64,000 bases of DNA. It comes from Gammaproteobacteria bacterium (GTDB lineage: Bacteria; Gemmatimonadota; Gemmatimonadetes; Longimicrobiales; Gaopeijiaceae). The stretch is from contig VXMG01000121.1 of assembly GCA_009841185.1 (NCBI GenBank), forward strand, positions 20,271 to 84,270, in the 5' to 3' direction. The notes beneath the pieces were generated by a model. The model made no database searches and was not told the origin of the DNA. It worked only from the letters and a program-made list of their open reading frames with translations. A program made the position numbers and the translations under genes. Each line of letters starts with the position of its first letter. Position 1 is the stretch's first letter. Below, in pieces: positions 5,732 through 53,963 of the stretch.

Positions 5732-6576
5732 CGGGATCTCCTCATCGAGAAACTGTCCGCGCGGCGGAATCCCAGCGCCGCCACGGCGAGGAAGACGAGC
5801 GTTTCGGCCACCAGAACCGCTAGGTGCATCGGGACCGGCTGCCCGGCGTCCATCGCGATGACCTTGAGCGCGAGCTGCGCGTGGTGATAGGCGGGAAGCG
5901 CCAGCGCGATGTCCTGCATGACATCCGGAAACATGTAGATGGGGAGCCAGAGCCCGGAGAGCATGGCCATGGGCAGGAAGACGAGGTTGACCACGGCGAC
6001 GGCCGAGCGGCCCCTGGCCCACGCGCCGATCGTCAGGCCCAGGGCACAGAACGGGATCACGCCGGCGAGCAGTACTCCGGCCAGCGCGAACCACTGCCAG
6101 CGGTAGAGCGCCACCCCCGCCGCGTGCGCGGCCATCAGGAACAGCGCCGCTACGACGACCGCGCCGAAGATGAGCGCCGCCATGACCTTGGCGAACAGGT
6201 AGGCGCCCGCGGGCATGGGCGTGGTCTGCTTCAGAAGCAGGACGCCGGTGTCGCGTTCGTTCGCGAGCCCGGCTCCGAAGCCGAAGAGCGCCGGACCGAG
6301 GACGCCGAAGACCCCGTAGGTCGCCAGCACGTAGGTCGGCACGGCCAGCGACACCCCGCGCGCGCCCATGATCACGCCGAAGAACAGGTAGAAGATGAGC
6401 GGGAACGCCAGCGTGGGAATGGCGAACATGGGTTCCCGCAACACCTCCACGAACTGGAAGCGCGCTTCGAGGAGGTAGATGTGGAAGCGGCGGGTAGGGG
6501 TCAGGCGATGGGCGTCGCGAGCTTGCATCGAAGCGCCCGCGCTGGGGGATGCCGCCTGTGCCGCCCTGCCGCTCAT
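5728..6576 (-). CDS. ABC-2 type transporter permease
   Basis: Multi-TM hydrophobic protein. ATGA overlaps couple it to the ABC ATPase upstream (6573-6576) and the amidohydrolase downstream (5728-5731). Confidence 0.8.
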   Translation of the reverse strand: MSGRAAQAASPSAGASMQARDAHRLTPTRRFHIYLLEARFQFVEVLREPMFAIPTLAFPLIFYLFFGVIMGARGVSLAVPTYVLATYGVFGVLGPALFGFGAGLANERDTGVLLLKQTTPMPAGAYLFAKVMAALIFGAVVVAALFLMAAHAAGVALYRWQWFALAGVLLAGVIPFCALGLTIGAWARGRSAVAVVNLVFLPMAMLSGLWLPIYMFPDVMQDIALALPAYHHAQLALKVIAMDAGQPVPMHLAVLVAETLVFLAVAALGFRRADSFSMRRSR

Positions 6577-7490
6577 TCCACGCCCTCTTCCCCATCCCGC
6601 GTCAGCTCGAGAAACGCCTCTTCGAGCCCTGCGGCCACGACGGTGAGGTCCGCCAGCGCCTCGTCACGCGCGAGCAGCACCCGCACCAGGGCCTCGGGCT
6701 GCGTCGTCAACGCCTCCAGATGCTGCCCCCGCGTCCGGGCATCGACCACGCCCGGCAGGCTTGCCACCTCATCGGGCGCGATCCGGGTGACGCAACGCAC
6801 CAGCCGCCCCGCCGTGCGCGACTTGATCTCCGCGGGGGTGCCCTCCGCGATCCGCCGCCCGTTGTGGATGACCACCACGCGGTCGGCCAGCGCGTCGGCC
6901 TCGTCCAGGTTGTGCGTGGTGAGAACGGTGGTGCGCCCGGACTCCCTGAGCGCCCGGATCTCGCTCCACAGCCGGTGCCGCGCATCGACGTCAAGCCCGG
7001 TGGTGGGTTCGTCCAGGAACAGCAGCTCCGGATCGCCCGCCAGCGCCAGCGCGAACATCACCCGCTGCTTCTGGCCTCCGGAGAGCTTCCCGTACCGGCG
7101 CCGGGCGAGATCCTCGAGGCCCGCCATGGCGAGCAGGCGCGAAGCCGGGATCGGCGCTGGATAGTAGGCGCGGAAGAGTTCGATGTGCTCGCGCACCGTC
7201 AGATTCGCGGAGATGCCCGAGATCTGGAGCATCGCGCCCCGACGAACCCGAACCTCCGGCGCTCCTGGAGCGAAGCCGAAGACCCTCGCCGCGCCCTCCT
7301 GCACCTGCAGGCTCCCGAGGAGAAGGCTGATGGCGGTGGTCTTTCCGGCGCCGTTGGGACCCAGCACCCCCAGCACCTCGCCCCGCCGGACCTCCAGATC
7401 GAGATCGTCCAGCGCCAGCACCGTTCCGTATCGATGTGTTACGCGCGAGAGGCTGGCGAGGGCAGGGCTATGCGCTGTACCGGCTTGCAT
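6573..7490 (-). CDS. ABC transporter ATP-binding protein
   Basis: Walker A 'GPNGAGKTT', ABC signature 'LSGGQKQR', Walker B 'LLFLDEPTTGLD'. Confidence 0.95.
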   Translation of the reverse strand: MQAGTAHSPALASLSRVTHRYGTVLALDDLDLEVRRGEVLGVLGPNGAGKTTAISLLLGSLQVQEGAARVFGFAPGAPEVRVRRGAMLQISGISANLTVREHIELFRAYYPAPIPASRLLAMAGLEDLARRRYGKLSGGQKQRVMFALALAGDPELLFLDEPTTGLDVDARHRLWSEIRALRESGRTTVLTTHNLDEADALADRVVVIHNGRRIAEGTPAEIKSRTAGRLVRCVTRIAPDEVASLPGVVDARTRGQHLEALTTQPEALVRVLLARDEALADLTVVAAGLEEAFLELTRDGEEGVE

Positions 7491-7587
7491 AGGGCTAGCC
7501 TACGAGCCGGCGGTCGGGGCTGTTTCGGGGGCGTCGGTGTAGCGGCCGTGACCACGCCGCCGACTCCCTGTAGTCTTAGTCACAAGA

Positions 7588-7614
7588 GCCCCGAGGGATG
7601 TCCACCCTCGGGGC
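7588..7614 (-). terminator. GC-rich hairpin directly after the HigA-like sORF
   Basis: GCCCCGAGGG-atgtcca-CCCTCGGGGC, a perfect 10-bp stem. The downstream U-tract is weak (tcttgtg). Confidence 0.3.
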
Positions 7615-7616
7615 CC

Positions 7617-7694
7617 CTACCTCAGCGTCTTGCTGCGCCCGAAGTCGTGCTTCAGCACTTCGCCGGGGTGGACCGGCTCCAGACGAGTCATCAT
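7617..7694 (-). pseudogene. 25-codon ORF resembling the N-terminus of a HigA/VapI-type antitoxin (relic or sORF)
   Basis: Minus-strand translation is MMTRLEPVHPGEVLKHDFGRSKTLR*. 'P(V/I)HPGE(I/V)L' is the characteristic HigA/VapI N-terminal motif. GGAGGGAG lies about 6 nt upstream of the ATG. The HTH part is missing. A 10-bp hairpin follows immediately. Confidence 0.35.
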
Positions 7695-7778
7695 GTAGCT
7701 CCCTCCGCGTACGCCCAACCGGGAAAATCAAAAGCGCAACTTTCGTTTTTCCCGTTTGCAGGTCGTCAATCCCCCCCC

Positions 7779-9455
7779 TCACACCCGCACCGTCGCCTGA
7801 AACGTCGGCGGGCGCCGCACGTTCGTCGCCTGCTCGAAGGCGTACGCCAGCCGGATCAGTGTCGCCTCGCTCCAGGCGCGGCCGCAGAGCGACATCCCGA
7901 CAGGGAGCCCGTGGATGAACCCCATGGGCACCGACATGTTGGGATAGGCCGCCATGGCCGGGGGCGTCGAGCATCCGCCCCCGCCTCCGCCGGACGCGTC
8001 CAGCGGGTCCTGCATGGCGGGGATGCCGGACGTGATTCCGACCAGAGCGTCCAGCTCGTGCTCGTCCATCGCGCGGTCGATCCCCTCGTCGCGCGAGAGC
8101 CGATGGCTCATCGCCAGTGCGTCGATGTAGCGCTGGTCGGTCAGCGGGCCGCGCTCCTGGGAGCGCACATGGAGCTCCTGCCCGTAAAGGGCGAGCTCCA
8201 GATCGGCATTCGCTTCGTTGTACTCGATGAGCTCCGCGAGCGACTTGATCGGCGCGTCGGGACCCAGCGAGGCGAGATAGGCGTTCAGATCCGCCTTGAA
8301 CTCGTGGTACAGCACCTCCATCTCGTATTCGTTGCCGAAGCGCAGCTCCCCGGGGAGCGTGACGGGATCGATCACCGTCGCGCCCTCCGCCCGCATGACG
8401 TCGAGCGCCTCCTCGAACAGGGCGTCGACGCGGCTGTCGAAGCCGGCATACTCGCGCAGCACGCCGACCCGGCCGCCATTCAGGCCGGCCGGGTCCAGCG
8501 CGCCGGTGTAGTCGGTGAGGAAGTTGCCCGCGCTCGCGGCGGTGAGCGGGTCGCGCGGGTCGACGCCGACCATTGTCCCGAGCATGATCGCCGCATCCCG
8601 CACGGTGCGCGCCATCGGGCCGGTGCTGTCCTGGCTGTGGGCGATGGGGATGACGCCGCCCCGGCTGTGAAGGCCGATCGTGGGCTTGATGCCGACCAGG
8701 CAGTTGCGCGAGGACGGGCCGACGATCGAGCCGTCGGTCTCGGAGCCGATCGTCGCGACCGCCAGGTTGGCCGCCGCGCCCGCTCCGGACCCGGAACTCG
8801 ACCCGCCCGGGGTGCGGTCGAGCGCGTAGGGATTCCTGCAGAAGCCGCCCCGGCCGCCGTCCCATCCGCGGCCGCTCCAGCCGGACGCCCCGAACTCGAA
8901 CGACTTCCAGCCCGCCCACTCGCTCATGTTCGCCTTGCCGAGCAGGAGCGCGCCCGCATCCCGCAGCCGCACGGCCACGAAAGCGTCCTGCGGCGCGATC
9001 GATCCGGCCAGCGCCGTCGAGCCGGCGGTGGTCGTCATCCCGTCCGCGGTATCGATGTTGTCCTTCAGCAGAAGGGGGATGCCGTGCAGCGGCCCCCGGG
9101 GCCCCGAGGCCTGGAACTCGCGGTCGAGCTCGTCGGCGATCTCTAGCGCGTCCGGGTTCACCTCGAGCACCGCGAACAGCCGCGGCCCCTGCCGGTTCAG
9201 CGCCTCGATGCGGTCGAGGTACATCTCCGTGATCGAGCGGCAGGTGTACTCGCCCGTCCGCATGCCCTCGTGGACTTCGTCGATCGTGATCTCGTCGAGA
9301 GCGAAGTCCGGCACGTTGCCCGGGGTGCTCTCCTGCCCCGCGCCACCGCGCCCCGAACCAGCGTCGCCGCCCGGAGCATCGCAGCCCCCGAGCGCGACCA
9401 GAGCGCCGGCCGCCGCGCCGGTGCCAATGAACGTGCGTCGATTCATTTCGGACAT
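7779..9455 (-). CDS. Amidase-signature family amidase, Tat/lipoprotein-type signal
   Basis: N-terminus MSEMNRRTFIGTGAAAGALVALGGC (twin-Arg plus lipobox-like Cys). 'GGSSSGSGAG' amidase signature. GAGGTGA Shine-Dalgarno sequence before the ATG at 9455. Confidence 0.9.
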   Translation of the reverse strand: MSEMNRRTFIGTGAAAGALVALGGCDAPGGDAGSGRGGAGQESTPGNVPDFALDEITIDEVHEGMRTGEYTCRSITEMYLDRIEALNRQGPRLFAVLEVNPDALEIADELDREFQASGPRGPLHGIPLLLKDNIDTADGMTTTAGSTALAGSIAPQDAFVAVRLRDAGALLLGKANMSEWAGWKSFEFGASGWSGRGWDGGRGGFCRNPYALDRTPGGSSSGSGAGAAANLAVATIGSETDGSIVGPSSRNCLVGIKPTIGLHSRGGVIPIAHSQDSTGPMARTVRDAAIMLGTMVGVDPRDPLTAASAGNFLTDYTGALDPAGLNGGRVGVLREYAGFDSRVDALFEEALDVMRAEGATVIDPVTLPGELRFGNEYEMEVLYHEFKADLNAYLASLGPDAPIKSLAELIEYNEANADLELALYGQELHVRSQERGPLTDQRYIDALAMSHRLSRDEGIDRAMDEHELDALVGITSGIPAMQDPLDASGGGGGGCSTPPAMAAYPNMSVPMGFIHGLPVGMSLCGRAWSEATLIRLAYAFEQATNVRRPPTFQATVRV

Positions 9456-9706: not shown

Positions 9707-10837
9707 ATGATCCCGAAAGCCAACGGCCGGATCCCGCGCCGCGTCGATCGACTGCCTCCGTTTCCGGAGGGGTGGTACTTCATCGCGACCCGCGACACCC
9801 TGCTGAAGGAAAAGCTCATCGAGAAGGCCTGGATGGGCGAGCAGATCGTCGCGTGGTGCGACGACGATGGCCGCGTCTGCGTGGCGGACGCGTTCTGCCC
9901 GCACCTGGGCTCGCACCTGGGGCCGACGGCTGGCGGCACCATCCGGGACGGCTGCCTCGTTTGTCCCTTCCACGGCTTCACCTTCGATGCCACCGGTCAG
10001 TGCGTCGCGACGCCCAACGCTCCGGCCCCCAGAGCCGCGAAGCTGCAACTCTACGAGACCCGGGAGATCCTGGGCATGGTCTTCGCCTGGTATGGCGCCG
10101 GCGGGCGGGCGCCGCAGTGGGATCTGCCGGAGGAGCCCCCCACGGGCGCGGACTGGAGCGGGCTGCGTTTCGCCACCATGGGCTTCCGGGGCCATCCCCA
10201 GGAGACGACAGAGAACTCGGTGGACGTCGAGCACCTGGAGTACACGCACGGCTACCGGGATGTGGAGCCGACCGCCTTTTCCATCGACGGCGCCTACCTG
10301 AAGAGCTGCTTCGAGTTCACGAACGTCCGCACCGTCGCGGGGCTGATCGACATCGTGTCCGAGGTATCGGCCGTCACCCACGTCCATGGGCTGGGATTCT
10401 CGTTCGTCGAGGTTCACGAGAAGACGATCGGCATGGACTCCAGGCTGTGGGTGCTCTCGACCCCGGTCGACGGCGAGTTGGTCGAGTTGACGCTCGTCAG
10501 CCAGGCGCGCGAAGTCGCCAGGCCCGGGCGCTACATCGCCGGGCTGGGGTTCCTGCCGAAGAAGCTCCGCAACAGGCTGATGAACCGCATCCTGATCTAC
10601 GAGGAGCGGCGGTTCGTCGCACAGGACGTGGTCATCTGGGAGCGGAAACGCTACCAGTCCCCGCCGCGTCTCTGCCGGGCTGACGGGCCCATCGGCAAGT
10701 ACCGGCTGTATTGCCGTCAGTTCTACTCCGACATAGGTATCAGTAAGACCGCCGGTCCAGCTTCGGATCGTGGGCTGCGCCGCGCGTGGGCGGATCGAAT
10801 TGGATCCGGGCATCTGCCGGAGGGGAACGGGACATGA
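9707..10837 (+). CDS. Rieske [2Fe-2S] non-heme-iron oxygenase, Neverland (cholesterol 7-desaturase)/KshA-like
   Basis: Rieske ligands 'CPHLGSHLG' and 'CPFHGFTF'. Mononuclear iron motif 'ENSVDVEHLEYTH' (D-x2-H-x4-H). Size of about 376 aa is typical of KshA/Neverland-type single-component alpha subunits. Confidence 0.9.
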   Translation: MIPKANGRIPRRVDRLPPFPEGWYFIATRDTLLKEKLIEKAWMGEQIVAWCDDDGRVCVADAFCPHLGSHLGPTAGGTIRDGCLVCPFHGFTFDATGQCVATPNAPAPRAAKLQLYETREILGMVFAWYGAGGRAPQWDLPEEPPTGADWSGLRFATMGFRGHPQETTENSVDVEHLEYTHGYRDVEPTAFSIDGAYLKSCFEFTNVRTVAGLIDIVSEVSAVTHVHGLGFSFVEVHEKTIGMDSRLWVLSTPVDGELVELTLVSQAREVARPGRYIAGLGFLPKKLRNRLMNRILIYEERRFVAQDVVIWERKRYQSPPRLCRADGPIGKYRLYCRQFYSDIGISKTAGPASDRGLRRAWADRIGSGHLPEGNGT

Positions 10838-12179: not shown

Positions 12180-13217
12180 CTAGCCCCCGACTCGCGTGAA
12201 CGTGAACGTTCCGATGGGCGCGTCCGAGAACGGGGTCATGCCGCGGAGGCTGCGGATGGGCCGCTTGGGCGAGGAGTCGGCGTTGGCGGAGGTGTAGGTG
12301 GTTCCGTCGTCGGTGCCCGAGTCGTAGGGATAGAGGGTGACCTGGAGTTCGTCCACCCACTGCCCCAGGTCGTCCATCAGCGACAGCGCGGAAACGCCCA
12401 CGAACCAGTCCGGGCTCGGCGCGATCATGGTGACCAGGGTGACGAGGGGGTAGTTCCCCCGGACGACGACGCGGGAGATGGTCGCGCTGGCCGGGCTGGT
12501 GCCGAGCCCGGGTCCGCTGATGATGGAGAGTGCGTTGGCCGGGAGGTGCGCGCGGATTTCCGACCTGAGCGTGCTGGTCCCGCCCGTTTCGGCCATGCTC
12601 TCGATGCCGGGGGTGGCCGTCTCGCCGCTCGCCCAGAAGCGGACGCCGTCGTCGTGCACCGCCCCGATGAGCGGCGAGAAGTGCGCGCCGCCCGGGTAGT
12701 CGGTCGGGTGGGTGGCGGCGCTCCAGGTGGCGTCGAAGACGACGCTGTAGACGGCCGAGTCCGGCGGGGCGGGGAGCTCCCCCGCGGCCGCACGGATGTC
12801 GGTCGACACTCCCCCGGCCACCGACGCCGTGAGGGTCTGGGCACCGGCCGCATCGCCGAGCGTCCAGGTCGTGGCGGCCAGGCCGGCCGCGTCGGTGGCC
12901 GCGGTCGCGGGGTCGGCGGATCCGTGCCCGGCGGCGGCGGAGAAGGTCACGGTGACGCCCGCGACCGGCGAGCCGCCCGCGTCGTCCACCCGCACCACCA
13001 CGGCCTCGGCGAGCGTGCTGCCCGCCATCCCTTCCTGCCCGCTCCCCGACACGACCACGATGGCCGCGGGGGCGCGTGGCGCCTCTCCGGGCGGTTCGGT
13101 GCCGGAGTCGCCGCCGCAGGCGGCCAGCGCCGCAATGACGGGGATGCTTCCGAGGAGGGCCGGGAGGCCGTGGCTGCGGACGGAGGTCGATGCCCGCCGC
13201 CCGCCCGCATCACCCAA
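12180..13217 (-). CDS. Lipoprotein with a bacterial Ig-like domain and a spondin_N domain
   Basis: Lipobox 'AALAACGG'. Big-like repeat (VVSGSGQ...TVTFSAAAGHGS...TWTLG). C-terminal half 'FDATWSAATHPTDYPGGAHFSPLIGAVH...PSPDWFVGV...YPYDSGTDDG' matches spondin_N. The only in-frame start is TTG, 5 nt after the P450 stop. Confidence 0.75.
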   Translation of the reverse strand: MGDAGGRRASTSVRSHGLPALLGSIPVIAALAACGGDSGTEPPGEAPRAPAAIVVVSGSGQEGMAGSTLAEAVVVRVDDAGGSPVAGVTVTFSAAAGHGSADPATAATDAAGLAATTWTLGDAAGAQTLTASVAGGVSTDIRAAAGELPAPPDSAVYSVVFDATWSAATHPTDYPGGAHFSPLIGAVHDDGVRFWASGETATPGIESMAETGGTSTLRSEIRAHLPANALSIISGPGLGTSPASATISRVVVRGNYPLVTLVTMIAPSPDWFVGVSALSLMDDLGQWVDELQVTLYPYDSGTDDGTTYTSANADSSPKRPIRSLRGMTPFSDAPIGTFTFTRVGG

Positions 13218-13222
13218 CGCGG

Positions 13223-15250
13223 TCAGGACGGCAGCTCACGCACCTGCTCTGCGATGCGGAACTTGAGGTCCTTGCTCGGCTTCATCGACGGAAAGGGGCT
13301 GAATCGAAACTTGTAGTTCGCCGGCGACACCTCGATCGTGAAGTAATGCGCGACCAAAAGGAGGTTGACGCCCAGTTGCAGCTCCATCCACCGGGAGCCG
13401 AGGCACCTGTGTGTGCCCAGGCCATAGGGGGCGTACCCCGGGCTGCGGTGCTCATTGCGGGGATCCTTGTAGCGGTCGATATCGAAGGTGAAGGGGTCCG
13501 GGAAAACATCCTCCATGAAATGCGAGGCCGTCTGGGCGATGGCGACCCGCGTTCCAATCGGTATCTCGTAGTTCTCGACCACCCAGGTGTTCATCACGTT
13601 CCGCATGGACATCGGGACGATCGGGTACAGCCGCAGGCATTCCTTGATGAAACGGCGGGTGACGTCCATCGCGGAAAGGTTGAGGTCGTCGCCACCCGGT
13701 TCTCCGTCTTCGAAGAAGACACCGGCCTCATCCCGGATTCTGGCATAAAGCTCGGGCTGTGACGCCATGGCATAGAGCGCGCAGTTGAATCCATCCCCGA
13801 GATACACGCTGGCAACCAGCGCGGCCGACAGGGCGAACCGCAGATTCGACTCCGGTACGAACTGTGGATCGCTCGCGTGCAGGCTCAGCCAGTCATCGGC
13901 AAGGCTGCGCGGGCAGCCGGCCCGCTGGGCGGGAGTATGGACGCTGTAGACCCGTTCCAGCAACGTCTCCACTGCCTGCGCCCGGCGCTTCATTCCCGGG
14001 GTCTTCAGCATGAACTTGGGAAGGCCGTTCAGGATGTGGACGTTGAGTGCGCGTTCCTTGAACACGATCAGATCGTCGATGATATCCTGCGAATCCACGC
14101 TCAACATGAGAGGAGAGATCTGACTGTTGATCATGCGTCGGCAAAGGCGTCTTGCCGGGTAGGTGTCACCCACCGTCCAATCCGCCATGTATGCACGGGC
14201 CTGACGAAACAACAGGTCTCCCTGTCCTGCCAGCCTCGCGCGCGAGACGCCTGGCGCCATGGACTTGCGAAGCCGGAAGTGGTCTGCGCCATCGAGGGAG
14301 GGCAGGACTCCGGACGCACCATAGACTTTCTCGAAGTCGGCGAAATAGTCCCTGGCTCTCAGATACCTGCGCCCGTGCCGATTAACCCGGCGGTTTGTCC
14401 GCGGTCCGGCGAGGAAGATCATGGGTTGCGAGAACGGCGGCCGGAGCTCGAACACCGGGCCGTACTCCCTGGCCAGATCCGCGACGAGCGCGGGCAGGTT
14501 GCCACTGCGCAGGTGAGGATTCAACAGCAACTTGCGCAGCGGGACACGCGGAATCTGCTTCGCGAGGCGGGACCGCTGAACCACCGGGCCACCGAGGTTG
14601 GTCACCACCGCAGCCGCGATCGAGCGGCCGATCAGGTCCATCCTGCAGATGAGCTCGATGCGCTCGTGAGCCTCGTCGTCCAGTTGGAATATGAAACGAA
14701 AGACATCACACGAGTTCACCAGGCAGATGATGATGATGTCTCTCGGGTCCGGGATTTCCTCGGTGAAGATGACCTTGCCGATGCGCGTCCTGATGAACTG
14801 GCGTGCGGTGCCTTCCTCGGTGTCGCCGTACAGTTCCGTCTGCCAGACCCTGCGAGCCAGGGTCCAGAACTCGCCGTCGTGATGTTGCAGGATCTTGAGT
14901 TCAACCAGGCGGTCCAGCGTCAGATCGATGATCGACTCGGCACGGTGCGCGAGGTGCTCGATCCAGTACTGGGCGTTCCGTTGAACTCGCTCGTCTGCGA
15001 TCTCCTTCAGAATGGGGTCCAGTGCGGGGTCGCCCGTTTCCGTCGCGTCCACCAGGAACAGCGACTCCATGTCCGTGTCGATGCGCGTCAGGAGTGAGAG
15101 TTCCGCGAGCACCGCGCCGATGACGGCGCAATGCAGCCGCCAGCCGGGCACCTGGTGGAAGTAGCCGTTTTCCTCGTTGAGGAGCATCAGGATGAGCTCC
15201 TCGGGCAGCGTCAGCGCCTGGGTGGAGACATTCTCTGTCGCAACAGCCAT
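13223..15250 (-). CDS. GOLPH3/GPP34-like domain fused to a cytochrome P450
   Basis: The N-terminal ~200 aa 'LTLPEELILMLLNEENGYF...' are GPP34-like. The C-terminus has the ExxR motif 'KECLRLYP' and the heme loop 'YGLGTHRCLGSRWME'. Confidence 0.85.
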   Translation of the reverse strand: MAVATENVSTQALTLPEELILMLLNEENGYFHQVPGWRLHCAVIGAVLAELSLLTRIDTDMESLFLVDATETGDPALDPILKEIADERVQRNAQYWIEHLAHRAESIIDLTLDRLVELKILQHHDGEFWTLARRVWQTELYGDTEEGTARQFIRTRIGKVIFTEEIPDPRDIIIICLVNSCDVFRFIFQLDDEAHERIELICRMDLIGRSIAAAVVTNLGGPVVQRSRLAKQIPRVPLRKLLLNPHLRSGNLPALVADLAREYGPVFELRPPFSQPMIFLAGPRTNRRVNRHGRRYLRARDYFADFEKVYGASGVLPSLDGADHFRLRKSMAPGVSRARLAGQGDLLFRQARAYMADWTVGDTYPARRLCRRMINSQISPLMLSVDSQDIIDDLIVFKERALNVHILNGLPKFMLKTPGMKRRAQAVETLLERVYSVHTPAQRAGCPRSLADDWLSLHASDPQFVPESNLRFALSAALVASVYLGDGFNCALYAMASQPELYARIRDEAGVFFEDGEPGGDDLNLSAMDVTRRFIKECLRLYPIVPMSMRNVMNTWVVENYEIPIGTRVAIAQTASHFMEDVFPDPFTFDIDRYKDPRNEHRSPGYAPYGLGTHRCLGSRWMELQLGVNLLLVAHYFTIEVSPANYKFRFSPFPSMKPSKDLKFRIAEQVRELPS

Positions 15251-15627
15251 CAGCGTTGGCCCCTCGTCTCGATACGGGAAGACTGCCTCACCAACCTCGG
15301 CAACCTCATGCTCCGTTTCTCTTCGTCAGACGCCGGGACGGAAGGTTCAGCCCCGTTTCGGCGGTCGCCCAAACCCGAGCTTCCTACAGCTAAGATACAC
15401 CTGAGCATGAGCATAGCTCCACGGGCACGGCTGCGTCAAACGGAATCTGTCGCGAGAAAGCGTCGTTGTGACGCAACACCCGGCGATTCCTCGAGAGCCG
15501 ATCCCTGGATCGCGTTCGCCGGCGGTATCGCGCGCACCGCAGGGTGCCTTGATGGTGCACGGCGAGTACCCAATTAGTATCCTGTCCGTGCGCGTCCCTC
15601 GTCCACACCCAGGCCGATCCAGCACAA

Positions 15628-18600
15628 ATGAGTCGGAACTCAAACAACCACGGCGAACCGGGCGGCCCTATCGCCTATATGGCGAGCAACAGCGTCGCCG
15701 CCAATCTGCTGATGCTCGGGATCATCGCAGCGGGTCTGGTGTCGCTGACCGGTCTCGAGCAGGAGGGATGGCCCGAGGTACCCTTCAACCAGTTCGAGAT
15801 CTCCGTGCCCTTCCCCGGCGCAACCCCCGAGGAGGTGGAGGAGGCCATCGTCGTCAAGATCGAGGACCAGGTCCGGGGACTCGCCGATGTGAAGGCGGTC
15901 AGGTCCATAGCCGCCCCGGGGATGGCGTCCGTCAGGGTTGAAGTCAACTCCGGCACGGACATGGGCGCCAAGAAGGACGAGATCGAGTCGGCGGTCGGGC
16001 GTATTCAGACGTTTCCGGGCGGAGCCGAGCGGCCACAGATACGCGAGATGACCAACGCCCAGAGCATGATTCGCCTGGTCGTCTACGGCGACGTTCCCGA
16101 GCGCTCGCTGAAGGAACTCGCGTACCGGATCGAAGACGAGCTCGCTGCGCTTCCCTCCGTCTCCCAGGTCGCGACCAGCGGAGTGCGCAACTACGAGGTT
16201 TCGATCGAGGTGCCGCTACAGCGTCTCAGGGCTCTCGGCCTGACCCTGACCGATATCGCGAACACGATTCGCCGCAACTCACTGGACCTGTCCGCGGGGA
16301 GCATCGATACGCGGGAGTCCCAGGTGCGGGTGCGCACCCTTGGCCAGAGCTACGACCAGCAGGATTTCGAGGAAATCGTTCTTCTCAGCCGGGACGACGG
16401 CACGGTCGTGCGCCTGGGTGATGTCGCCGAGGTGCGCGACGGTTTCCAGGACTCCGATCTGATCGTGCGGCACCAGGGCCAGCCCGCCGTCTTCGTCGAG
16501 GTATCCCAGGCGGAGGGCGAAAGGGTCATGAGCGTGGCCCGTGCCGTCCAGGAGCATGTGGCGAACGAGGTGGTGCCTTCACTCCCCGGTGGCGTGGGCG
16601 TGACCATCTGGAACGACGATTCCACGGCGTTCTCGGAGCGTGGCGCCCTCCTCCTCAAGAACGGGGCTCTGGGGCTGCTGCTGGTGTTGATCGCGCTGGG
16701 CCTGTTTCTGGAAGTCCGACTGGCCTTCTGGGTAGCCGTCGGCCTTGGCGTTGCGGGGATCGGCGCCCTGGCCGCCATGCTGGTGTTCGACATCCCGATC
16801 CACGCTGTCTCGCTCTTCTCTTTCGTACTCGCCATCGGAATCATCGTGGACGATGCGATCGTCGTGGCCGAACATATTCATCTGGAACGAATGCGAGGGA
16901 CGCCGGGCACCGTCGCCGCAATCCGCGGTGCGCGGCGGATCAAGGTGCCGCTGATCTTCGCGGTGCTCACCACCATCGTTGCGTTCGTCCCCCTGCTCTT
17001 CATTCCCGCAGGGTTCGGAGAAGTCTGGAAGGCGCTGCCCATCATCGTCATCGCCATGCTGGTGATCTCGCTGATCGAATCGCTGCTGGTGCTGCCCAAC
17101 CACCTGTCGCACCATCTGCACGGCCCCGGCTGGGCGCCCCGCACGGGCGCGGAACGGTTCGTCGCGCGCATCCAGGGTCGGGTCGACTCCCTGCTGAACA
17201 GCTTCATACAGGGCCCCCTGGATCACGGGATGCGGTTCGCGACCGATCGACCCGGCGTGACGCTCTCCGCAGCTATCGCTCTCTTCATACTCACCGTCTC
17301 CCTGCTGCCGGCCGGCATCGTGCCGACCACCTTCGCGACCGAGGTCGAGGGAGACTTCGTAACCGCCACCCTTCAGATGCCGGACGGAACCACCGCGCAG
17401 CAGACGGACGCGGTGGCACGGGAACTGGAGGCGGCCGGTCACCGGGTCATCCAGCGTCTTTCCGAGGGCCGGCCCGAAGATGCGGCTCCGCTTCTGTCCG
17501 GCGTTACGGTTGTCGTCGGGCAGCGGTCACGGATCGAGACCGGAGGTCTCAACCCCTCGCCCACGCTGAACCCCGAAGCCAACATCGCCACCATCGAGTT
17601 CAAGCTCCTGCCGGCGCAGCAGCGGCGCATCACTTCGGGAGAAGTCATGCAGGCCTGGCGTGAGGAGGTGGGCATCCTGCCCCATGTGCGCGGGATCACC
17701 TTCATGAGCGAGATCTACACGCTGGGCAACCCGGTGGAAGCCGTGCTGTCCCATCCGGATCCGGAGCGCCTGGTAACGATCGCATCGTCCGTGGTCGATG
17801 AGCTCCGTCGAGTGGGGGGTGTCTTCGACATTCGCTCGGACCACACGCCCGGCATCCCTGAAGTCCAGTTGGGATTGCTGCCCGAAGCACGAACCCTCGG
17901 CCTCACGCTCGACGCGCTTGCCCAGCAGACGAGAGACGCTTTCTTTGGCGCGGAGGCCCTGCGGGTCCAGCGAGGACGCGACGAAGTCCGGGTCTACGTC
18001 CGGCTGCCCGAGGAGCAGCGCAACTCGATCACCGACATCGAGAGCTACCTCGTCCGTACGGCAACCGGCGCCGAGGTGCCGGTGAGCCGTGTGGCTTCAC
18101 TGAGCGCGGCCATGTCGCCGCCGGCCATCCGTCGCCAGGACGGCCAACGCGTTGCCACGGTCACTGCCGATGTAGACGCAAGTGTGATTTCCGCCGGGGA
18201 AGCCAATGGCATTCTGGAGAGCACCATCCTCGCGGGACTGGTCGATACGGACCCTGACCTGACCTACACCTTTGGTGGCGAACAACAGCAGCAGATCGAC
18301 TCTCTGGGTGCGCTCTACCGCGGTTTCGCGATAGCGTTGCTGATTATCTTCGCGCTGCTGGCCATTCCGCTGCGTTCCTATACCAAGCCGTTCATCATCA
18401 TGGCCATCATCCCGTTCGGGTTCGTCGGCGTGATCCTGGGCCACTGGATCCTGGGAGTGGCGGTGAGCGCGGAGTCCTTTGTCGGGATATTCGGCCTGGC
18501 CGGCGTGGTGGTGAACGATTCCCTGGTCATGATGGACTTCATCGATCAGGAACTTGAGGAGGGCCTTCCGGCGCGCGAGGCGATCATCGAGGGGGCCAAG

Positions 18601-18807
18601 GGCCGTTTTCGTCCGATCATGCTGACTTCGCTCACCACCTTCCTCGGCTTTACGCCGCTGATTCTCGAAGACGCAATTCAGGCGCAGTTCTTCGTTCCTT
18701 TCTCCGCCTCGATCGGGTGCGGCATCCTCTTTACCACGGCCATCCTGATGTTCCTGGTGCCCGCGCTTTCCTCGCTGCGCCTGCACTTGACCACCCGGGG
18801 CTCCTAG
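15628..18807 (+). CDS. RND-superfamily efflux permease (AcrB/HAE-like, 12 TM), with no adaptor or OMF gene adjacent
   Basis: 1059 aa. AcrB-like N-terminus 'SNSVAANLLMLGIIAAGL', large periplasmic loops, internally duplicated TM bundles. Confidence 0.95.
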   Translation: MSRNSNNHGEPGGPIAYMASNSVAANLLMLGIIAAGLVSLTGLEQEGWPEVPFNQFEISVPFPGATPEEVEEAIVVKIEDQVRGLADVKAVRSIAAPGMASVRVEVNSGTDMGAKKDEIESAVGRIQTFPGGAERPQIREMTNAQSMIRLVVYGDVPERSLKELAYRIEDELAALPSVSQVATSGVRNYEVSIEVPLQRLRALGLTLTDIANTIRRNSLDLSAGSIDTRESQVRVRTLGQSYDQQDFEEIVLLSRDDGTVVRLGDVAEVRDGFQDSDLIVRHQGQPAVFVEVSQAEGERVMSVARAVQEHVANEVVPSLPGGVGVTIWNDDSTAFSERGALLLKNGALGLLLVLIALGLFLEVRLAFWVAVGLGVAGIGALAAMLVFDIPIHAVSLFSFVLAIGIIVDDAIVVAEHIHLERMRGTPGTVAAIRGARRIKVPLIFAVLTTIVAFVPLLFIPAGFGEVWKALPIIVIAMLVISLIESLLVLPNHLSHHLHGPGWAPRTGAERFVARIQGRVDSLLNSFIQGPLDHGMRFATDRPGVTLSAAIALFILTVSLLPAGIVPTTFATEVEGDFVTATLQMPDGTTAQQTDAVARELEAAGHRVIQRLSEGRPEDAAPLLSGVTVVVGQRSRIETGGLNPSPTLNPEANIATIEFKLLPAQQRRITSGEVMQAWREEVGILPHVRGITFMSEIYTLGNPVEAVLSHPDPERLVTIASSVVDELRRVGGVFDIRSDHTPGIPEVQLGLLPEARTLGLTLDALAQQTRDAFFGAEALRVQRGRDEVRVYVRLPEEQRNSITDIESYLVRTATGAEVPVSRVASLSAAMSPPAIRRQDGQRVATVTADVDASVISAGEANGILESTILAGLVDTDPDLTYTFGGEQQQQIDSLGALYRGFAIALLIIFALLAIPLRSYTKPFIIMAIIPFGFVGVILGHWILGVAVSAESFVGIFGLAGVVVNDSLVMMDFIDQELEEGLPAREAIIEGAKGRFRPIMLTSLTTFLGFTPLILEDAIQAQFFVPFSASIGCGILFTTAILMFLVPALSSLRLHLTTRGS

Positions 18808-19847
18808 CCCTGAAGAGGCTTGCGCGCCAGGAAGCAGTAGAGCGGCGTGAAGATCCCGGTCCTGCCGCCGGCGACATAGGCGTCTGCAGTCCGATCCATA
18901 AGTTCGACAACCTCCGCCGATCCCCTGGGGAACACCCGCAGCAACTCGGCCAGCCTGGATGCCCAGAAAAACATCCTGCGACCCATGGGAGCCTGGACGA
19001 GAGCGCTCCCGAGCCACCCGCGCCGGGCCTCCATGGGCTGATACCACGGCGTGGTCGGACCGGTCTCGTCGACAGCGAGGTCCGTCGCTTCCAGGATTTC
19101 GAATCCGGCGGTTTCGAGGGCCCGGTCTGTCTCCGCGAACGTTGCGATGTCCCGGAGCGCGATGCCGTGCATCAGGTCGCGCTTGATGGCCCGGTGGCGA
19201 TCGTCGTGGGGATTGTACACATCCGTCATGCACATTTCCTGGCCCCAGAAAAGGGCTCCGGGCTTGAGGACACGGTGGATTTCGGCAAACGCGAGTGCCT
19301 TGTCGGGAGCATGGCAGGTCGATTCGATCGCGTAGCCCCGATCGAAGGTCCCGTCCGCGATGGAACTCATATTCATGAAGCTGCAAGCGAGGAAGTCGAT
19401 CATGTGATCGAGCCCCGCCTCGGCATTCAGCGACCTGGCCCTGCTCAACTGGACTTCACTGCTGTTGATTCCCAATACCCGGACGCCGGCCTCGCGGGCG
19501 ACGCGGCGCATTGGACCTCCGATCCCGCAACCGATGTCGGCCACCGTCATGCCCTCGCGCAGTTCCAGCTTGGCGATCATCTGCCGCTGGTGCCGGATCT
19601 TGGAGTCCTTCAGGCTCTCGCCGGGCGACAGCGGCGCAAAATGCAGGGATTCTCCCCAACCGAAGACCATCAATTCGCTACAAAGGTCGTAGTATTCCGT
19701 TGCGGTCCGGGTGTGGTCGTAGTCGGCTGCGCGGCCATCCGCGGCGAACGCTCTGTCCGTCCATCCTTCGAAATTCCGCACGCGGCGGCGGACGTTCGTT
19801 TCGCCGAACGCGGCCTTCAGTCCCCTGGATAGTCGACGCAGATGCAT
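18804..19847 (-). CDS. Sterol C-24 methyltransferase (ERG6/SMT)-type SAM-dependent methyltransferase
   Basis: Collinear with yeast ERG6 as I recall it: 'YYDLCSELMVFGWGESLHFAP' (cf. [20 protein letters not shown]), SAM motif 'DIGCGIGGP', 'YAIESTCHAP' (cf. YAIEATCHAP), and the C-terminal Sterol_MT_C-like 'GIFTPLYCFLARKP' (cf. KLFTPMMLFVARKP). Confidence 0.9.
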   Translation of the reverse strand: MHLRRLSRGLKAAFGETNVRRRVRNFEGWTDRAFAADGRAADYDHTRTATEYYDLCSELMVFGWGESLHFAPLSPGESLKDSKIRHQRQMIAKLELREGMTVADIGCGIGGPMRRVAREAGVRVLGINSSEVQLSRARSLNAEAGLDHMIDFLACSFMNMSSIADGTFDRGYAIESTCHAPDKALAFAEIHRVLKPGALFWGQEMCMTDVYNPHDDRHRAIKRDLMHGIALRDIATFAETDRALETAGFEILEATDLAVDETGPTTPWYQPMEARRGWLGSALVQAPMGRRMFFWASRLAELLRVFPRGSAEVVELMDRTADAYVAGGRTGIFTPLYCFLARKPLQG

Positions 19848-19911
19848 GGCAGGTCTTGGAGAGGCACTGGCGTTAGAGTCGTCCGCAACAGTCGTTGGCG
19901 CGAACTAAGGT

Positions 19912-19930
19912 GAAGGCACACGGTGCCTTC
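19912..19930. promoter_or_regulatory. Perfect inverted repeat GAAGGCAC-N3-GTGCCTTC in the divergent SMT/OMP intergenic region
   Basis: Read directly from the sequence. 8-bp arms with a 3-nt spacer, 65-83 nt upstream of the SMT start codon. Confidence 0.3.
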
Positions 19931-19954
19931 AGGCAAGGGGGACGGCGATGAACG

Positions 19955-20074
19955 ATGGGCAGGCGGCGCAAGGGGCGGCCACAGGAGTCGCCGCTCCATG
20001 TCGGCTATTCCATTCCGCGAGGGGGCGCGTTCCGGTACGTTTCGTGTCCCAACTACCTGGGAGAGCTGCTGGAG
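19955..20074 (+). pseudogene. Relic of a 3-oxo-5-alpha-steroid 4-dehydrogenase (SRD5A/TECR) family gene, C-terminal motif only
   Basis: In-frame upstream extension of the OMP ORF reads RRRKGRPQESPLHVGYSIPRGGAFRYVSCPNYLGELLE. Compare the SRD5A/TECR signature 'LR.LRKPG..GY.IPRGGLFEYVSC(A/P)NY.GE..EW'. An in-frame stop lies immediately upstream, and the motif runs straight into the OMP signal peptide. Confidence 0.4.
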
Positions 20075-20911
20075 ATGACGACTCGACTGGCTCCGGGCGT
20101 TCTGCTGGCCGCCGTGGCGGTTGGCACGATGCTCGGGCGCCCGATGAATGGGTCCGCGCAGGAGCCCGTGAGGGCACCGGCTGCCCCGGCGTCCCGTCCC
20201 CTGACTGCCGATCGCCCCGATTTCACGGAAGCGGCATCCGCCGTGGGCCGGGGCGTCCTCCAGATCGAGTTCGGCTACACGTTCGGCGGAGACTGGTCCG
20301 GCGGCAATTCGGTCCAGACCCATACGCTGGGCGAAATGCTGCTGCGCGCGGGGGTTGCGGCGGACTGGCTGGAACTCCGGGTGGCGGCCAGCCCGGTGAC
20401 CCGCGTGGACACCGAGGGAAGCGGAGCCAGCGACAGTGGGATCGAGGACCTCTACCTGGGCGCCAAGATCGAGTTCACCCGGCAGGCGGGCCGCCTTCCG
20501 GCGCTCGCGGTCCTGCCGCAGATGACGCTGCCCACGGGCAGCACGCTGTTCTCCGGCGGACGCGCGCTGCCGGGCGTGAATCTCGTCTACAGTTGGGATG
20601 CGCCCGGAGGATTCTCCCTGGCGGGCAGCACGCAGGTCAACCTGGCCGTCGCGGATGGCGACGACAGCTACCCCGAGTGGGCCCAGTCGGCGGTCGCGGG
20701 AGCCGGCGTCGGGACGCGCGGAGGCGTGTACGGCGAATGGTATGCGTTTCTGCCCACGGGGGCGGATGCCCCGCAGGAGCATTACTTCAATGCGGGCCTG
20801 ACCTGGCTCACAGCCGACGATTCGCAGTGGGACATCCGGGTCGGCGTCGGGCTGAACGATGCCGCCGAGGACTTCTTCGCGGGCGTGGGGGCGGCCATCA
20901 GGATGCGCTGA
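20075..20911 (+). CDS. Outer-membrane beta-barrel channel, 'MetA-pathway of phenol degradation'-like family
   Basis: Signal peptide MTTRLAPGVLLAAVAVGTMLG...AQE. 'DRPDFTEAASAVGRGVLQIEFGY' matches the N-terminal motif of that family. Alternating beta-strand pattern. Confidence 0.65.
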   Translation: MTTRLAPGVLLAAVAVGTMLGRPMNGSAQEPVRAPAAPASRPLTADRPDFTEAASAVGRGVLQIEFGYTFGGDWSGGNSVQTHTLGEMLLRAGVAADWLELRVAASPVTRVDTEGSGASDSGIEDLYLGAKIEFTRQAGRLPALAVLPQMTLPTGSTLFSGGRALPGVNLVYSWDAPGGFSLAGSTQVNLAVADGDDSYPEWAQSAVAGAGVGTRGGVYGEWYAFLPTGADAPQEHYFNAGLTWLTADDSQWDIRVGVGLNDAAEDFFAGVGAAIRMR

Positions 20912-38600: not shown

Positions 38601-39091
38601 TAGCCCACCGAGCGCTGGCCGTTGTTCTCGCCCGTACCCACCCAGAGGGTGAGGTGGTCGTTCGGGTCGAGCGCGATGGCCCCGATGGAATACGAGCCGT
38701 AGTCGTCGAAGATGGGCGTCCAGGTGGTCCCTGCGTTCGTGGTTTTCCAGACGTTCCCGGATGAGGCCGCCACGTACCAGGTGCTGCGATCGGTCGGGTC
38801 GATGGCGATGTCGGCGATGCGGCCCGATGCGACGGCGGGGCCGATGCTCCGCCACCTGAACGACGAGAGCAGGCCGGAGTTGAGTTCCGCCGGGGCGTCC
38901 TCGTCGGACTCCTGGGCATGGAGCCCGCCGGGCAGGCCCCCCGCCGTGGACGCCGGCGGGAGCAGTGCCGCAAGCAGAACCAGAGCCGACGGCGCCGGGA
39001 TGCGGCGGAATAAGACGCAACCGAAGTGCGAGAAGGCCTGACGGCCGGAGTACGAGAACGCATGACGGGTTCGGAGACGGAGGTCGTACAT
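35696..39091 (-). CDS. Secreted BNR/sortilin (VPS10)-repeat beta-propeller protein
   Basis: Internal ATG (MYDLRL...) of the 1602-aa track ORF. Repeated 'S.DGG.TW' BNR motifs (TNAGTTW, VDGGRSF, RDGGESW, TDGGETW, DDGGETW, EDGGETW, VDGGESW). Confidence 0.85.
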   Translation of the reverse strand: MYDLRLRTRHAFSYSGRQAFSHFGCVLFRRIPAPSALVLLAALLPPASTAGGLPGGLHAQESDEDAPAELNSGLLSSFRWRSIGPAVASGRIADIAIDPTDRSTWYVAASSGNVWKTTNAGTTWTPIFDDYGSYSIGAIALDPNDHLTLWVGTGENNGQRSVGYGDGVYKSVDGGRSFANMGLETSEHIGMIAVHPDDSRTVFVAAQGPLWNAGGERGLYRTRDGGESWELVLEIDEHTGVNEVYFDPRNPDVMYASSWQRRRHQWTMIDGGPGSGIHKSTDGGETWRAINRGLPSGDKGRIGMAISPINPDVLYAIVEASGNDGGTFRSENMGENWSRTSRYQSTAPMYYHELYADPHRFDRIYAMDTFLEMSDDGGETWSRLPTQSVHVDHHAIAFDPDDPEHLILGNDGGLYETFDFGENWSHFTNLPLTQYYKVATSNDEPFYYVYGGTQDNNTMGGPSQTLGGGIRNSDWYVTLGGDGFDPVIDPENPDIIYSQLQHGVLSRFDRGSKERLDIQPQADPGGPPLRWYWDAGLIMSPHDNHRLYFGAQILFRSDDQGSSWRAISGDLSRNLDRNQLEVMGRVWSVDAVGKNRSTSVFGHIVAISESPLVEGLIYVGTDDGLVQVTEDGGETWREIASLPGVPDTSFVHDVEASLHDPDAVFAVVNNFKRGDYRPYVLKSEDRGRNWTAITGGLPDNSPSFSIVQDHIESDLLFLGAEFGAFVSVDGGESWMEFDSGLPTIAVRDLEIQQREGDLVAATFGRSFYVIDDYTPLRELARGPEPILASAGHLFEVADGDMYVPWNPGGANGADFYAADNPELGVTFTYWVGETLRTRRAERQAEERRAAGRGEDTPYPSWEELIEEDREEAPRVYLTVRDEGGQVVNVVNGSTSRGVHRAVWNYRYPAYTPVTGGGGGGFGGFGGGNGPMALPGSYTVSLAQRVDGEVKELAGPAPFEIAPLTKPAIAAQDRAVVLAFQRETGELLRAVTGSQRAAAGAAQRIGAVKQALEGWPAAPAALMGDARALELRLLDLREALDGSRTRTSRAEPDLPGIAGRVNQVVRGHWNGTHGPTGTHREQYRVAREAFSAMYPELQRLVETDLPALEGRLEEAGVPWTTGRALPSWPPGG

Positions 39092-39202
39092 CGTGTGTTC
39101 CTCGGGGCGGTAGTGTGCAGGGACGGAAAGAGTGTAGACGGGGGACGCCTCGACCGCCAAGTTGCCGGAACAGCATCCGTCTTCGACCAGGGATCGTGAA
39201 TC

Positions 39203-51552: not shown

Positions 51553-51685
51553 CGACACCTCCTGATCTGCAGGGGAAGGTAGGGATATACCCCGATCGCA
51601 GCGAGCAGAGCCCTTCCGTTCTCGCCGACATCGCTCGCTGTTCGTATCATGAAGACGCCAGTTTCCCCTCCCACACGAGGTCCAG

Positions 51686-53926: not shown

Positions 53927-53963
53927 TGCCGGCGGCGGGCCGCATGAACCAAGGCAGGTCGAC

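Follow-up and report, generated by a model that had tools for sequence, protein, structure and literature searches.

A GPP34–cytochrome P450 fusion of sponge symbionts in a gene cassette with sterol methyltransferases: a candidate sterol-tailoring enzyme

The 64,000-nucleotide stretch of contig VXMG01000121.1 analyzed here (hereafter the window) encodes a single polypeptide in which a GPP34 domain, the fold of the eukaryotic protein GOLPH3, is joined to a complete cytochrome P450. On balance, we lean towards the view that this fusion is a P450 that tailors sterols (or cyclic triterpenoids) within a mobile gene cassette, and that its GPP34 domain serves substrate handling or partner docking and not the sensing of phosphatidylinositol 4-phosphate (PI4P). 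The fusion architecture as such was published in January 2025 (Ferreira et al., 2025); what is new here is its linkage to a sterol cassette, the loss of the PI4P pocket, and a non-canonical I-helix that is specific to one clade of fusions.

The fusion and the cassette that surrounds it

The gene is one open reading frame (ORF) of 675 codons with an ATG start, a GAGG-type ribosome-binding site upstream of it, and zero internal stops. Comparison with Pfam-A placed PF05719 (GPP34) on residues 15-215 of the product (profile positions 1-198 of 201, E=1e-28) and PF00067 (p450) on its C-terminal part (E=7e-34), both matches far exceeding the curated cut-offs. An AlphaFold2 model of the whole chain, built from an alignment of 47 diverse family members, had a mean predicted local distance difference test score (pLDDT) of 88.5 and a predicted TM score (pTM) of 0.84; low-pLDDT residues (225-227) separate the two confident domains, and the linker region in which they lie is conserved among orthologues. 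A preliminary description of the window, made from its letters alone, had proposed an in-frame fusion of GPP34 to a complete P450, and the single ORF, the match of the N-terminal region to PF05719, and the confident structural prediction all bear this out.

The same description had raised the possibility that a frameshift or an assembly error joins two separate genes. We ruled this out and regard its probability as negligible, because the architecture recurs across hundreds of genomes. A search covering 5.8 billion proteins returned more than 120 independent clusters at 90% identity in which both Pfam domains are present, nearly all 672-690 aa long and 71-98% identical, and among one genome per GTDB species at least 526 stretches encode a relative of the fusion, many of them on multi-megabase chromosome-level contigs. 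These sequences come from different assemblers, long-read chromosome-level assemblies included; the conserved linker and the whole-chain pTM of 0.84 likewise argue against two genes joined by accident. Stand-alone GPP34 proteins and unfused P450 relatives also exist elsewhere. On one Dehalococcoidia chromosome (locus L048, 10001-10705) the orthologue has an in-frame stop in its first 235 codons, and could be a pseudogene or reflect a sequencing error.

What the preliminary description had presented as an unusual architecture is a published one: 'GPP34_L', with GPP34 plus P450, comprises 656 proteins from sponge symbionts only, is found in 14 of the 16 GPP34-bearing phyla, and is monophyletic (Ferreira et al., Microbiome 2025, PMC11706023). 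The same study reported that in many phyla 50-100% of the symbiont genomes have GPP34_L and that the free-living relatives analyzed lack it, found it transcribed in situ in A. aerophoba, and put forward GPP34 proteins as secreted effectors that bind PI4P and keep phagosomes from maturing (PMC11706023). The window protein shares with this set the PF05719-PF00067 order, a length of ~675 aa, and the ecological source, and almost certainly belongs to it; only the interpretation differs. Its nearest relatives are encoded by two Gammaproteobacteria metagenome-assembled genomes (MAGs), SB0675_bin_31 (98% identity) and SB0662_bin_11 (97%), and it is 98% identical to protein cluster P0001. Since the SB06xx bins are Ircinia ramosa symbionts (PMC11706023), these identities suggest that the window fusion, too, is encoded by a sponge-associated bacterium. 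Ferreira et al. made no mention of sterols, analyzed flanking genes only for the short GPP34_S, and left the P450 family, the I-helix, and the PI4P-pocket residues outside their analysis (PMC11706023).

The genes around the fusion are what link it to sterols. We compared 80 orthologue loci from ~10 phylum/class-level lineages, counting a partner where tblastn found it within 10 kb of the fusion (E<=1e-8, at least 40% coverage). The first six homologue contexts held the same partners as the window, and Nitrospira added a complete sterol cluster with a squalene epoxidase-oxidosqualene cyclase (SE-OSC) fusion, CYP51, ERG24, and two sterol C-24 methyltransferases (SMTs). Across all loci, the most constant partner was a Rieske oxygenase of the KshA (3-ketosteroid 9-alpha-hydroxylase) type, present in 65 of 80 and within 1.5 kb in 39. 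The fusion also co-localizes with a recognized sterol gene, an SMT, which lies nearby in the window and is present in 58 of the 80 loci, in 49 of them within 1.5 kb; a median of 48.5 bp separates it from the fusion. A flavoprotein of the amine-oxidase type was found in 42 loci, and a resistance-nodulation-division (RND) pump in 27, with its adaptor in 17, in Gram-negative lineages. True CYP51 (7 of 80), SE-OSC (6 of 80), and ERG24 (8 of 80) were less frequent in this tblastn count, and 76 of the loci had at least one of Rieske, SMT, OSC, CYP51, and ERG24. Unbiased clustering of the neighbouring ORFs yielded an MMPL transporter that has Pfam hits to Sterol-sensing-domain and Patched-SSD and occurs in 39 loci, the majority of them from Chloroflexota. 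The clustering also yielded an ERG4/ERG24 reductase in 13 loci and an LppX/LprAFG lipid-carrier lipoprotein in 14. The MMPL/HAE3 transporter (~826 aa; for example, locus L088, 13150-15627, minus strand) replaces the RND pump as the partner.

The partners are full-length orthologues, with median identities of 59-83% across phyla. The SMT had a median identity of 71%, and 57 of 58 matches extended through Sterol_MT_C; the Rieske protein had a median of 59%, with 63 of 66 extending through KshA_C; the RND pump had a median of 74%; and the flavoprotein (for example, locus L034, 19148-20533, minus strand) is unusually conserved across phyla, at 75-88% identity. The same partners were present in 17 of 17 independent sponge-metagenome loci. 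In Nitrospirales, Binatia, Opitutia, and Thermodesulfobacteriota, the block is contiguous with a core of OSC, CYP51, ERG24, and SdmAB. This genomic context, with SMT, Rieske, and sterol core genes as neighbours, is in line with the sterol or terpenoid substrates suggested in the preliminary description.

Part of the cassette can be recognized in published work. Brown et al. assayed SMTs of sponge and coral symbionts, one of which (gene ...274, '1 of 2') yields (epi)codisterol from desmosterol; in their 'Nitrospira sp., coral reef' cluster, the labelled genes are ...270 (SMT), ...274 (SMT), ...275 (sdmB), ...276 (sdmA), ...277 (ERG24), ...278 (ERG11), and ...279 (squalene monooxygenase [SMO]/OSC) (Brown et al., 2023, PMC10070321). 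The gene order of our locus L063, verified with Pfam, is fusion, SMT, Rieske with KshA_C, outer-membrane protein (OMP), amine oxidase, SMT, 3-beta-hydroxysteroid-dehydrogenase-type epimerase, Rieske with VanA_C, and ERG24. Because this order maps one-for-one onto the published gene IDs, the fusion corresponds to gene ...269, adjoining SMT ...270 ('2 of 2'). Genes ...269 and ...271-273 are unlabelled there, and P450, Rieske, and GPP34 are unmentioned in the paper or its supplements (PMC10070321). Of the two Rieske types in L063, the one with KshA_C (13277-14302, minus strand) lies beside the fusion, and the one with VanA_C (19663-20790, plus strand) is sdmA. Since the true SdmA of this locus is a Rieske protein with VanA_C, the fusion-adjacent Rieske protein, which has KshA_C, is not SdmA; its score against the SdmA model NF052579, 34 bits against a cut-off of 600 bits, agrees with this.

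The published steroid clusters (PMC9531527, PMC10070321) thus concern the same organisms and partly the same contigs, SMTs included, but their annotation covers ERG24-CYP51-OSC, SMT, and SdmA/B, whereas the block of fusion, KshA-type Rieske, OMP, and amine oxidase is unlabelled. The fusion cassette is also far more widespread than the cyclase core of those clusters. The contig with the candidate propylating SMT, Ga0209021_1000146 (Brown et al., 2023), was not among the fusion loci listed by our pattern scan.

A divergent P450 and a remodelled GPP34 pocket

The five best PDB sequence matches of the P450 domain are all CYP51 (best 6mi0, E=5e-22, over residues 247-650), and the best match outside CYP51 has an E-value of 3e-14. 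By Foldseek, the top structural match is 6mcw, the Methylococcus CYP51 (TM(target) 0.82, 21-22% identity). The likeness to the M. capsulatus enzyme (6mcw, 6mi0, 7snm), the best match in both sequence and fold, includes the B'-C region (Y/F-G...V), and both proteins are found in bacterial sterol gene clusters. They differ in what they carry besides the P450 domain, a C-terminal ferredoxin in M. capsulatus CYP51 and an N-terminal GPP34 domain in the fusion. P450 nomenclature asks for at least 40% identity within a family, CYP51 included. The fusion has 21-22%, lacks AG(Q/H)HTS, and is accompanied in 7 of 80 loci by a separate true CYP51, which stands next to OSC and ERG24; in a Nitrospira locus (L003), for instance, a separate 499-aa P450 is a true CYP51 (E=8e-100 to 6mcw). 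We could therefore rule out that the fusion is the cluster's own CYP51, and because a bona fide CYP51 coexists in the same clusters, the function of the fusion P450 must be a different one. Judged by its sequence, we read it as a diverged CYP51-like paralogue doing a different job. Its best matches among NCBIfam models are weak and are to terpenoid oxygenases, and its closest unfused P450 relative, at 40% identity, lies 3.4 kb from an SMT.

Cys616, E537/R540, and R593 (in the PERF region) are invariant in 47 diverse family members, and since heme ligation, ExxR, and PERF residues are all preserved, the enzyme is very probably catalytically active. The centre of its I-helix, on the other hand, departs from the P450 norm, in which an acid-alcohol pair of the form (A/G)Gx(D/E)T(T/S) is typical, with exceptions. 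In the AlphaFold model, ALVASVYLGDGF lies in the middle of a 31-residue I-helix (H467-497), and a phmmer alignment with the Methylococcus CYP51 sets the motif A-G-H-H-T-S against A480-S481-V482-Y483-L484-G485. No [DE][TS] pair is found anywhere in the I-helix centre of the fusion. An aspartate, D486, stands three residues downstream of Y483, and 43 orthologues show no variation at Y483, L484, G485, and D486; ASVYLGD is present in every orthogroup member examined. Sister clusters have AAIYLG, AGHYTG, ASIYIG, and KSIYVG, of which AGHYTG is close to the AGHHTS of CYP51, while most paralogous GPP34-P450 subfamilies retain AG(L/I)(D/E)T, as seen among the 47 diverse fusions. Because the loss of the acid-Thr pair is confined to the sterol-cassette clade while most paralogues keep the pair, we consider it a real, conserved, and clade-specific change that would reflect functional specialization. 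The preliminary description had already noted that the pair seemed to be missing, which it took as a hint of atypical oxygen activation or a non-monooxygenase chemistry. The ExxR and I-helix stretches that it quoted stand; its heme loop, 'FGLGTHRCLG', needs correction at the first residue, which is Y (YGLGTHRCLG).

Several P450s do without the acid-alcohol pair, among them CYP74 allene oxide synthase, CYP8A1/CYP5A1, the CYP152 peroxygenases, EryF, and the CYP710/CYP61 C-22 desaturases. These share with the fusion the loss of the acid and the Thr, and are related to it at the superfamily level only. The AG(H/Q)HTS of CYP51 is likewise distinct from the ASVYLG of the fusion. To our knowledge, the Tyr-Leu(-Gly-Asp) arrangement corresponds to none of the described variants.

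The assignment of the N-terminal domain to the GOLPH3/Vps74 fold is secure on the basis of profile and model comparisons. The GPP34 profile matches solely GOLPH3/Vps74 in the PDB, and a model of the domain alone (pLDDT 83) was matched by Foldseek to 9qpq (E=2.8e-9, TM 0.69), as well as to 3kn1 and Vps74, the next match having E=0.06. GOLPH3/Vps74 structures (3kn1, 9qpq, 2zih) are thus the sole significant structural matches (TM ~0.65-0.69), and the shared fold includes the beta-hairpin (E121-124/E128-131). The known proteins are eukaryotic Golgi PI4P effectors; the fusion, in contrast, is bacterial and joined to an enzyme.

In GOLPH3, R90, R171, and R174 are proposed to contact the phosphates in the PI4P pocket, which also includes W81, and the variants W81A/R90A and R171A/R174A were built to test the function of the pocket (Wood et al., 2009, PMC2806290). 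By profile alignment, W81 maps to W37 of the fusion, R90 to I44, R171 to E105, and R174 to I108; the alignment is anchored without gaps by 'RLVELKIL...F128' of the fusion against 'NLVEKGVL...F194' of GOLPH3, in the same helix, and a 10-residue segment before R171 is deleted in the fusion. The tryptophan is invariant in 43 of 43 orthologues. The R90 column holds V/I/A/M/T in all 43, the R171 column E in 40 and D in 3, and the R174 column I in 42 and V in 1. The domain as a whole is acidic, with a net charge of -18 and a range of -26 to -13, where the aligned part of GOLPH3 has +2; the P450 domain has a net charge of +11. An acidic domain is unfavourable for binding an anionic lipid, and PI4P binding is disfavoured on this ground; together, the sequence data argue against canonical PI4P recognition. 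The preliminary description had brought up phosphoinositide and membrane sensing, a role that three non-basic residues among the four of the pocket, in 43 orthologues, and a net charge of about -18 speak against. As a speculation, the remodelled pocket, with its Trp, aliphatic residues, and one carboxylate, would be compatible with the hydroxyl end of a sterol. In neither the ORF nor the AlphaFold model did we see a signal-peptide-like segment, the N-terminus of the fusion leading directly into the first GPP34 helix.

Relatives of the fusion and its surroundings in the window

Orthologues 69-76% identical to the window protein were found in Latescibacterota, Gemmatimonadota, Rhodothermaceae, Nitrospirales, Opitutia, Binatia, Chloroflexota, Thermodesulfobacteriota, and Alpha- and Gammaproteobacteria. 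Beyond these, an exhaustive search of 50%-identity representatives turned up dozens of further clusters of full-length fusions with identities of 25-40%, which make up several paralogous subfamilies. The sister cluster P0125 shares the RND and Rieske neighbours. We rejected the idea that a sterol context is a property of all GPP34-P450 fusions, as the surroundings of the paralogous fusions P0139, P0126, and P0152 are different, and because of these subfamilies we limit the sterol inference to the orthogroup and its sister cluster. One paralogous fusion (locus L090, 8360-11589), from the same sample as the 98% relative of the window, has a canonical AGIDT and is separated by 9 bp from a Sulfotransfer_1 gene, followed by Acyl_transf_3; other fusion subfamilies may act in different lipid modifications, such as sulfation. 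In three sponge-metagenome loci (L104, L105, and L106), two fusion-type hits lie in tandem, 60-65% identical to the window protein, and their arrangement suggests local duplication.

Identity between fusions of different lineages (median 71.8%) is about the same as that within lineages (for example, 73.2% in Chloroflexota). For 16 of 79 fusion sequences the nearest neighbour, as much as 91.7% identical, comes from a different phylum-level lineage, although a few of these cases may be inflated by MAG binning and by NCBI taxon labels. From these comparisons, we take the cassette to be horizontally mobile. The pattern agrees with that of sponge-symbiont steroid clusters, for which horizontal transfer and purifying selection have been described (Kelly et al., 2022, PMC9531527).

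The features of the fusion gene and its neighbours in the window are collected in Table 1. The Spondin_N lipoprotein gene and the MpaB/Lcp gene are particular to the window's own lineage among the 80 loci. Spondin_N is a eukaryote-like extracellular-matrix domain, and our site scan found no terminator-like site between its gene and the fusion, with which it is probably co-transcribed. The MpaB/Lcp gene, located between the Rieske and Spondin genes, encodes a heme oxygenase of the rubber-oxygenase type that is also 403 aa long in L001, the locus of the 98%-identical relative. The sigma-70-like match in the divergent intergenic region lies ~160 nt upstream of the fusion start codon, and is a predicted promoter based on its match to the consensus. 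In L001, an intact Steroid_dh gene (5-alpha-reductase-type; 4484-5245) stands beside the SMT; the 23-codon remnant kept in the window suggests that the cassette lost this gene recently.

Table 1. Positions of the fusion gene, its domains and motifs, and neighbouring features (window coordinates)
Feature	Position	Strand	Remarks
GPP34-P450 fusion gene	13223..15250	-	675 aa plus stop; PF05719 + PF00067; 'GPP34_L' family member
GPP34 (GOLPH3/Vps74-fold) domain, residues 15-215	14606..15208	-	net charge -18; W37 kept; I44, E105, I108
Inter-domain linker, residues 216-246, into Pro-rich P450 start	14513..14605	-	low-pLDDT 225-227; CYP51 alignment from 247
P450 domain, residues 247-675	13226..14512	-	diverged CYP51-like paralogue; ~22% identity to CYP51
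I-helix centre ALVASVYLGDGF, residues 477-488	13787..13822	-	Y483-L484 at acid-Thr positions; D486 invariant
K-helix ExxR = E537-C-L-R540	13631..13642	-	invariant in 47 diverse fusions
Heme loop YGLGTHRCLG, residues 609-618	13397..13426	-	Cys616 at nt 13403-13405; C616, G610 invariant
KshA-type Rieske oxygenase (Rieske + KshA_C)	9707..10837	+	Pfam; best PDB relatives KshA, 4qdf 5e-21
MpaB/Lcp-family oxygenase, PF09995, 403 aa	10935..12146	+	probable ATG 10935; lineage-specific; 1/80 loci
Spondin_N + Big_1 lipoprotein, lipobox LAAC	12180..13217	-	Pfam; 6 bp downstream of fusion; 1/80 loci (L011)
Divergent intergenic region, fusion (-) / RND pump (+)	15251..15627	.	one sigma-70-like match 15439-15410 (-)
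RND (AcrB-family) inner-membrane transporter	15628..18807	+	Pfam ACR_tran 4e-155
Sterol C-24 methyltransferase homologue (class I + Sterol_MT_C)	18804..19847	-	PF08498, 56 bits vs 21.7 cut-off
Steroid_dh (PF02544) remnant, 23 codons	20006..20074	+	intact gene in 98%-identical relative L001

Farther away, the window encodes a protein of 1602 aa (35696-40504, minus strand) that has Sortilin-Vps10 and BNR/Asp-box repeats, is eukaryote-like, and fits a sponge-symbiont genome. Three ORFs of 1253, 865, and 786 aa (146-3907, plus; 6549-9146, plus; 51647-54007, minus) had no Pfam match, and some of them may be spurious in a sequence of 65% GC. Scans of all 64 kb revealed neither a tRNA gene nor an Rfam family at the gathering threshold.

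Alternative explanations and meaning

In the reading towards which we lean, the fusion would be a cytoplasmic two-domain P450 belonging to a horizontally mobile cassette of sponge- and coral-associated bacteria, and would carry out an oxidative sterol step other than that of CYP51, a difference that follows from the coexistence of a genuine CYP51. Our favoured guess is a side-chain or ring desaturation or hydroxylation that would prepare or process the substrate of the adjacent methyltransferase, and the invariant Tyr-Leu, with Asp486 one turn on, could provide an altered route of proton delivery or oxygen activation that fits such a step. The GPP34 domain would no longer recognize PI4P, and would most likely bind or present the lipid substrate, or dock the enzyme to its partners or to the transporter at the membrane. 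The sterol itself may be made by the bacterium or derived from the host.

A number of observations weigh against this reading. Identity to CYP51 is only ~22%, and BM3, CYP184A1, and CYP11B superpose on the P450 domain nearly as well in Foldseek; fold alone thus fails to discriminate the P450 subfamily, and for both reasons the sterol substrate is drawn from genomic context and not from the active site. The 64-kb window contains no oxidosqualene cyclase, nor CYP51 or ERG24, and most of the loci are without a cyclase within 10 kb. Neither clustering of ORFs of at least 100 aa nor a ferredoxin Cys-motif scan of small ORFs detected a cassette ferredoxin or reductase for either oxygenase; the reading frame of a 56-aa ORF called in L001 is not preserved in the window. 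The closest solved relative of the flavoprotein is LkcE, the amide oxidase/cyclase of lankacidin (polyketide) synthesis, the MMPL partner scores higher on the HAE3/HpnN hopanoid-transporter models than on the BstA sterol transporter, and the paralogous fusions P0139, P0126, and P0152 have non-sterol contexts. Finally, the PI4P pocket was mapped by profile alignment, with the LVE...F motif as its anchor, and not from coordinates.

Some of these facts would suit an enzyme that tailors non-sterol lipids or secondary metabolites (hopanoids, terpenoids, or polyketides), the sterol genes then being neighbours within a broader 'membrane lipid island'. The MMPL partner, with its best scores on HAE3 and HpnN, the LkcE-like flavoprotein, the weak NCBIfam matches of the P450 to terpenoid oxygenases, and the paralogous fusions, whose neighbours are either genes for a sulfotransferase and an acyltransferase or unrelated ones, would all find a place there. 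We nevertheless think it unlikely, given that the neighbouring methyltransferase has Sterol_MT_C, a domain specific to sterols, and that SMTs of its group have proved active on desmosterol in experiments, that the block is contiguous with the OSC/CYP51/ERG24/SdmAB core in four lineages, and that the best sequence relatives of the P450 are CYP51. If the substrate is a sterol, the genes could also serve uptake and catabolism, with the KshA-like Rieske protein, a CYP125/CYP142-like P450, and the RND/MMPL transporters importing and degrading host sterols for carbon. Sponges are rich in sterols, the best solved relatives of the Rieske protein are 3-ketosteroid 9-alpha-hydroxylases, an RND-superfamily transporter is a neighbour in almost every case, and the cyclase is missing from most loci within 10 kb. 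Such a pathway seems decidedly unlikely to us, however, because the most closely spaced partner is a biosynthetic SMT (median gap 48.5 bp), the larger clusters are biosynthetic (SE-OSC, CYP51, ERG24, SdmA/B), the P450 is CYP51-like and not CYP125/142-like, and no KstD, Hsa-type ring-cleavage, or beta-oxidation families emerged from unbiased clustering of the neighbours.

The sole published functional hypothesis is that of a secreted PI4P-binding effector, which would bind PI4P on host phagosomes and block their maturation, thereby sparing the symbiont from digestion, with the P450 in an unspecified accessory role (Ferreira et al., 2025). Our analysis confirms the GPP34 fold on which it builds, and the hypothesis is consistent with the report of the family only in sponge (and coral) symbionts and not in free-living relatives, with expression in situ, with the eukaryote-like Spondin_N lipoprotein directly downstream in the lineage of the window, and with the conservation of the GOLPH3 pocket residue W81 as W37. 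It conflicts, on the other hand, with the lost phosphate-binding arginines, the equivalents of R90, R171, and R174 being non-basic in 43 of 43 orthologues, and with the acidity of the domain (-13 to -26, as against +2 for GOLPH3). Moreover, the N-terminus is without a signal-peptide-like segment, the cassette that holds the gene is one of metabolism and transport (SMT, Rieske, flavoprotein, RND/MMPL) and not a secretion-system locus, and a heme enzyme of 450 residues would be left without a role. For this family, we consider the effector explanation very unlikely.

A wider scenario, which we offer only tentatively, is that the fusion is the signature enzyme of a horizontally exchanged cassette, together with a dedicated SMT, the KshA-type Rieske oxygenase, the flavoprotein, and an SSD-like or RND transporter, by which diverse symbionts import host or self-made sterols, oxidize or desaturate them, alkylate them at C-24, and use or export the products, the GOLPH3 fold having been repurposed to sterol handling. 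In that scenario, the most sponge-specific bacterial gene family known would be a sterol enzyme, and symbionts would contribute to the unconventional sterols of sponges (24-isopropyl, 26-methyl), which are used as the oldest animal biomarkers. The link between the fusion and SMT or sterol clusters joins two literatures, one on GPP34 as a symbiosis factor and the other on bacterial sterol synthesis in sponges. If the sterol-tailoring reading is true, the fusion would add a P450 family that is new and has an unusual Tyr-Leu I-helix, as well as the first enzymatic context for a bacterial domain of the GOLPH3 fold, and the finding would bear on who makes the alkylated sterols of the sponge type, a question central to the debate over 24-isopropylcholestane as a trace of the 'oldest animal'.

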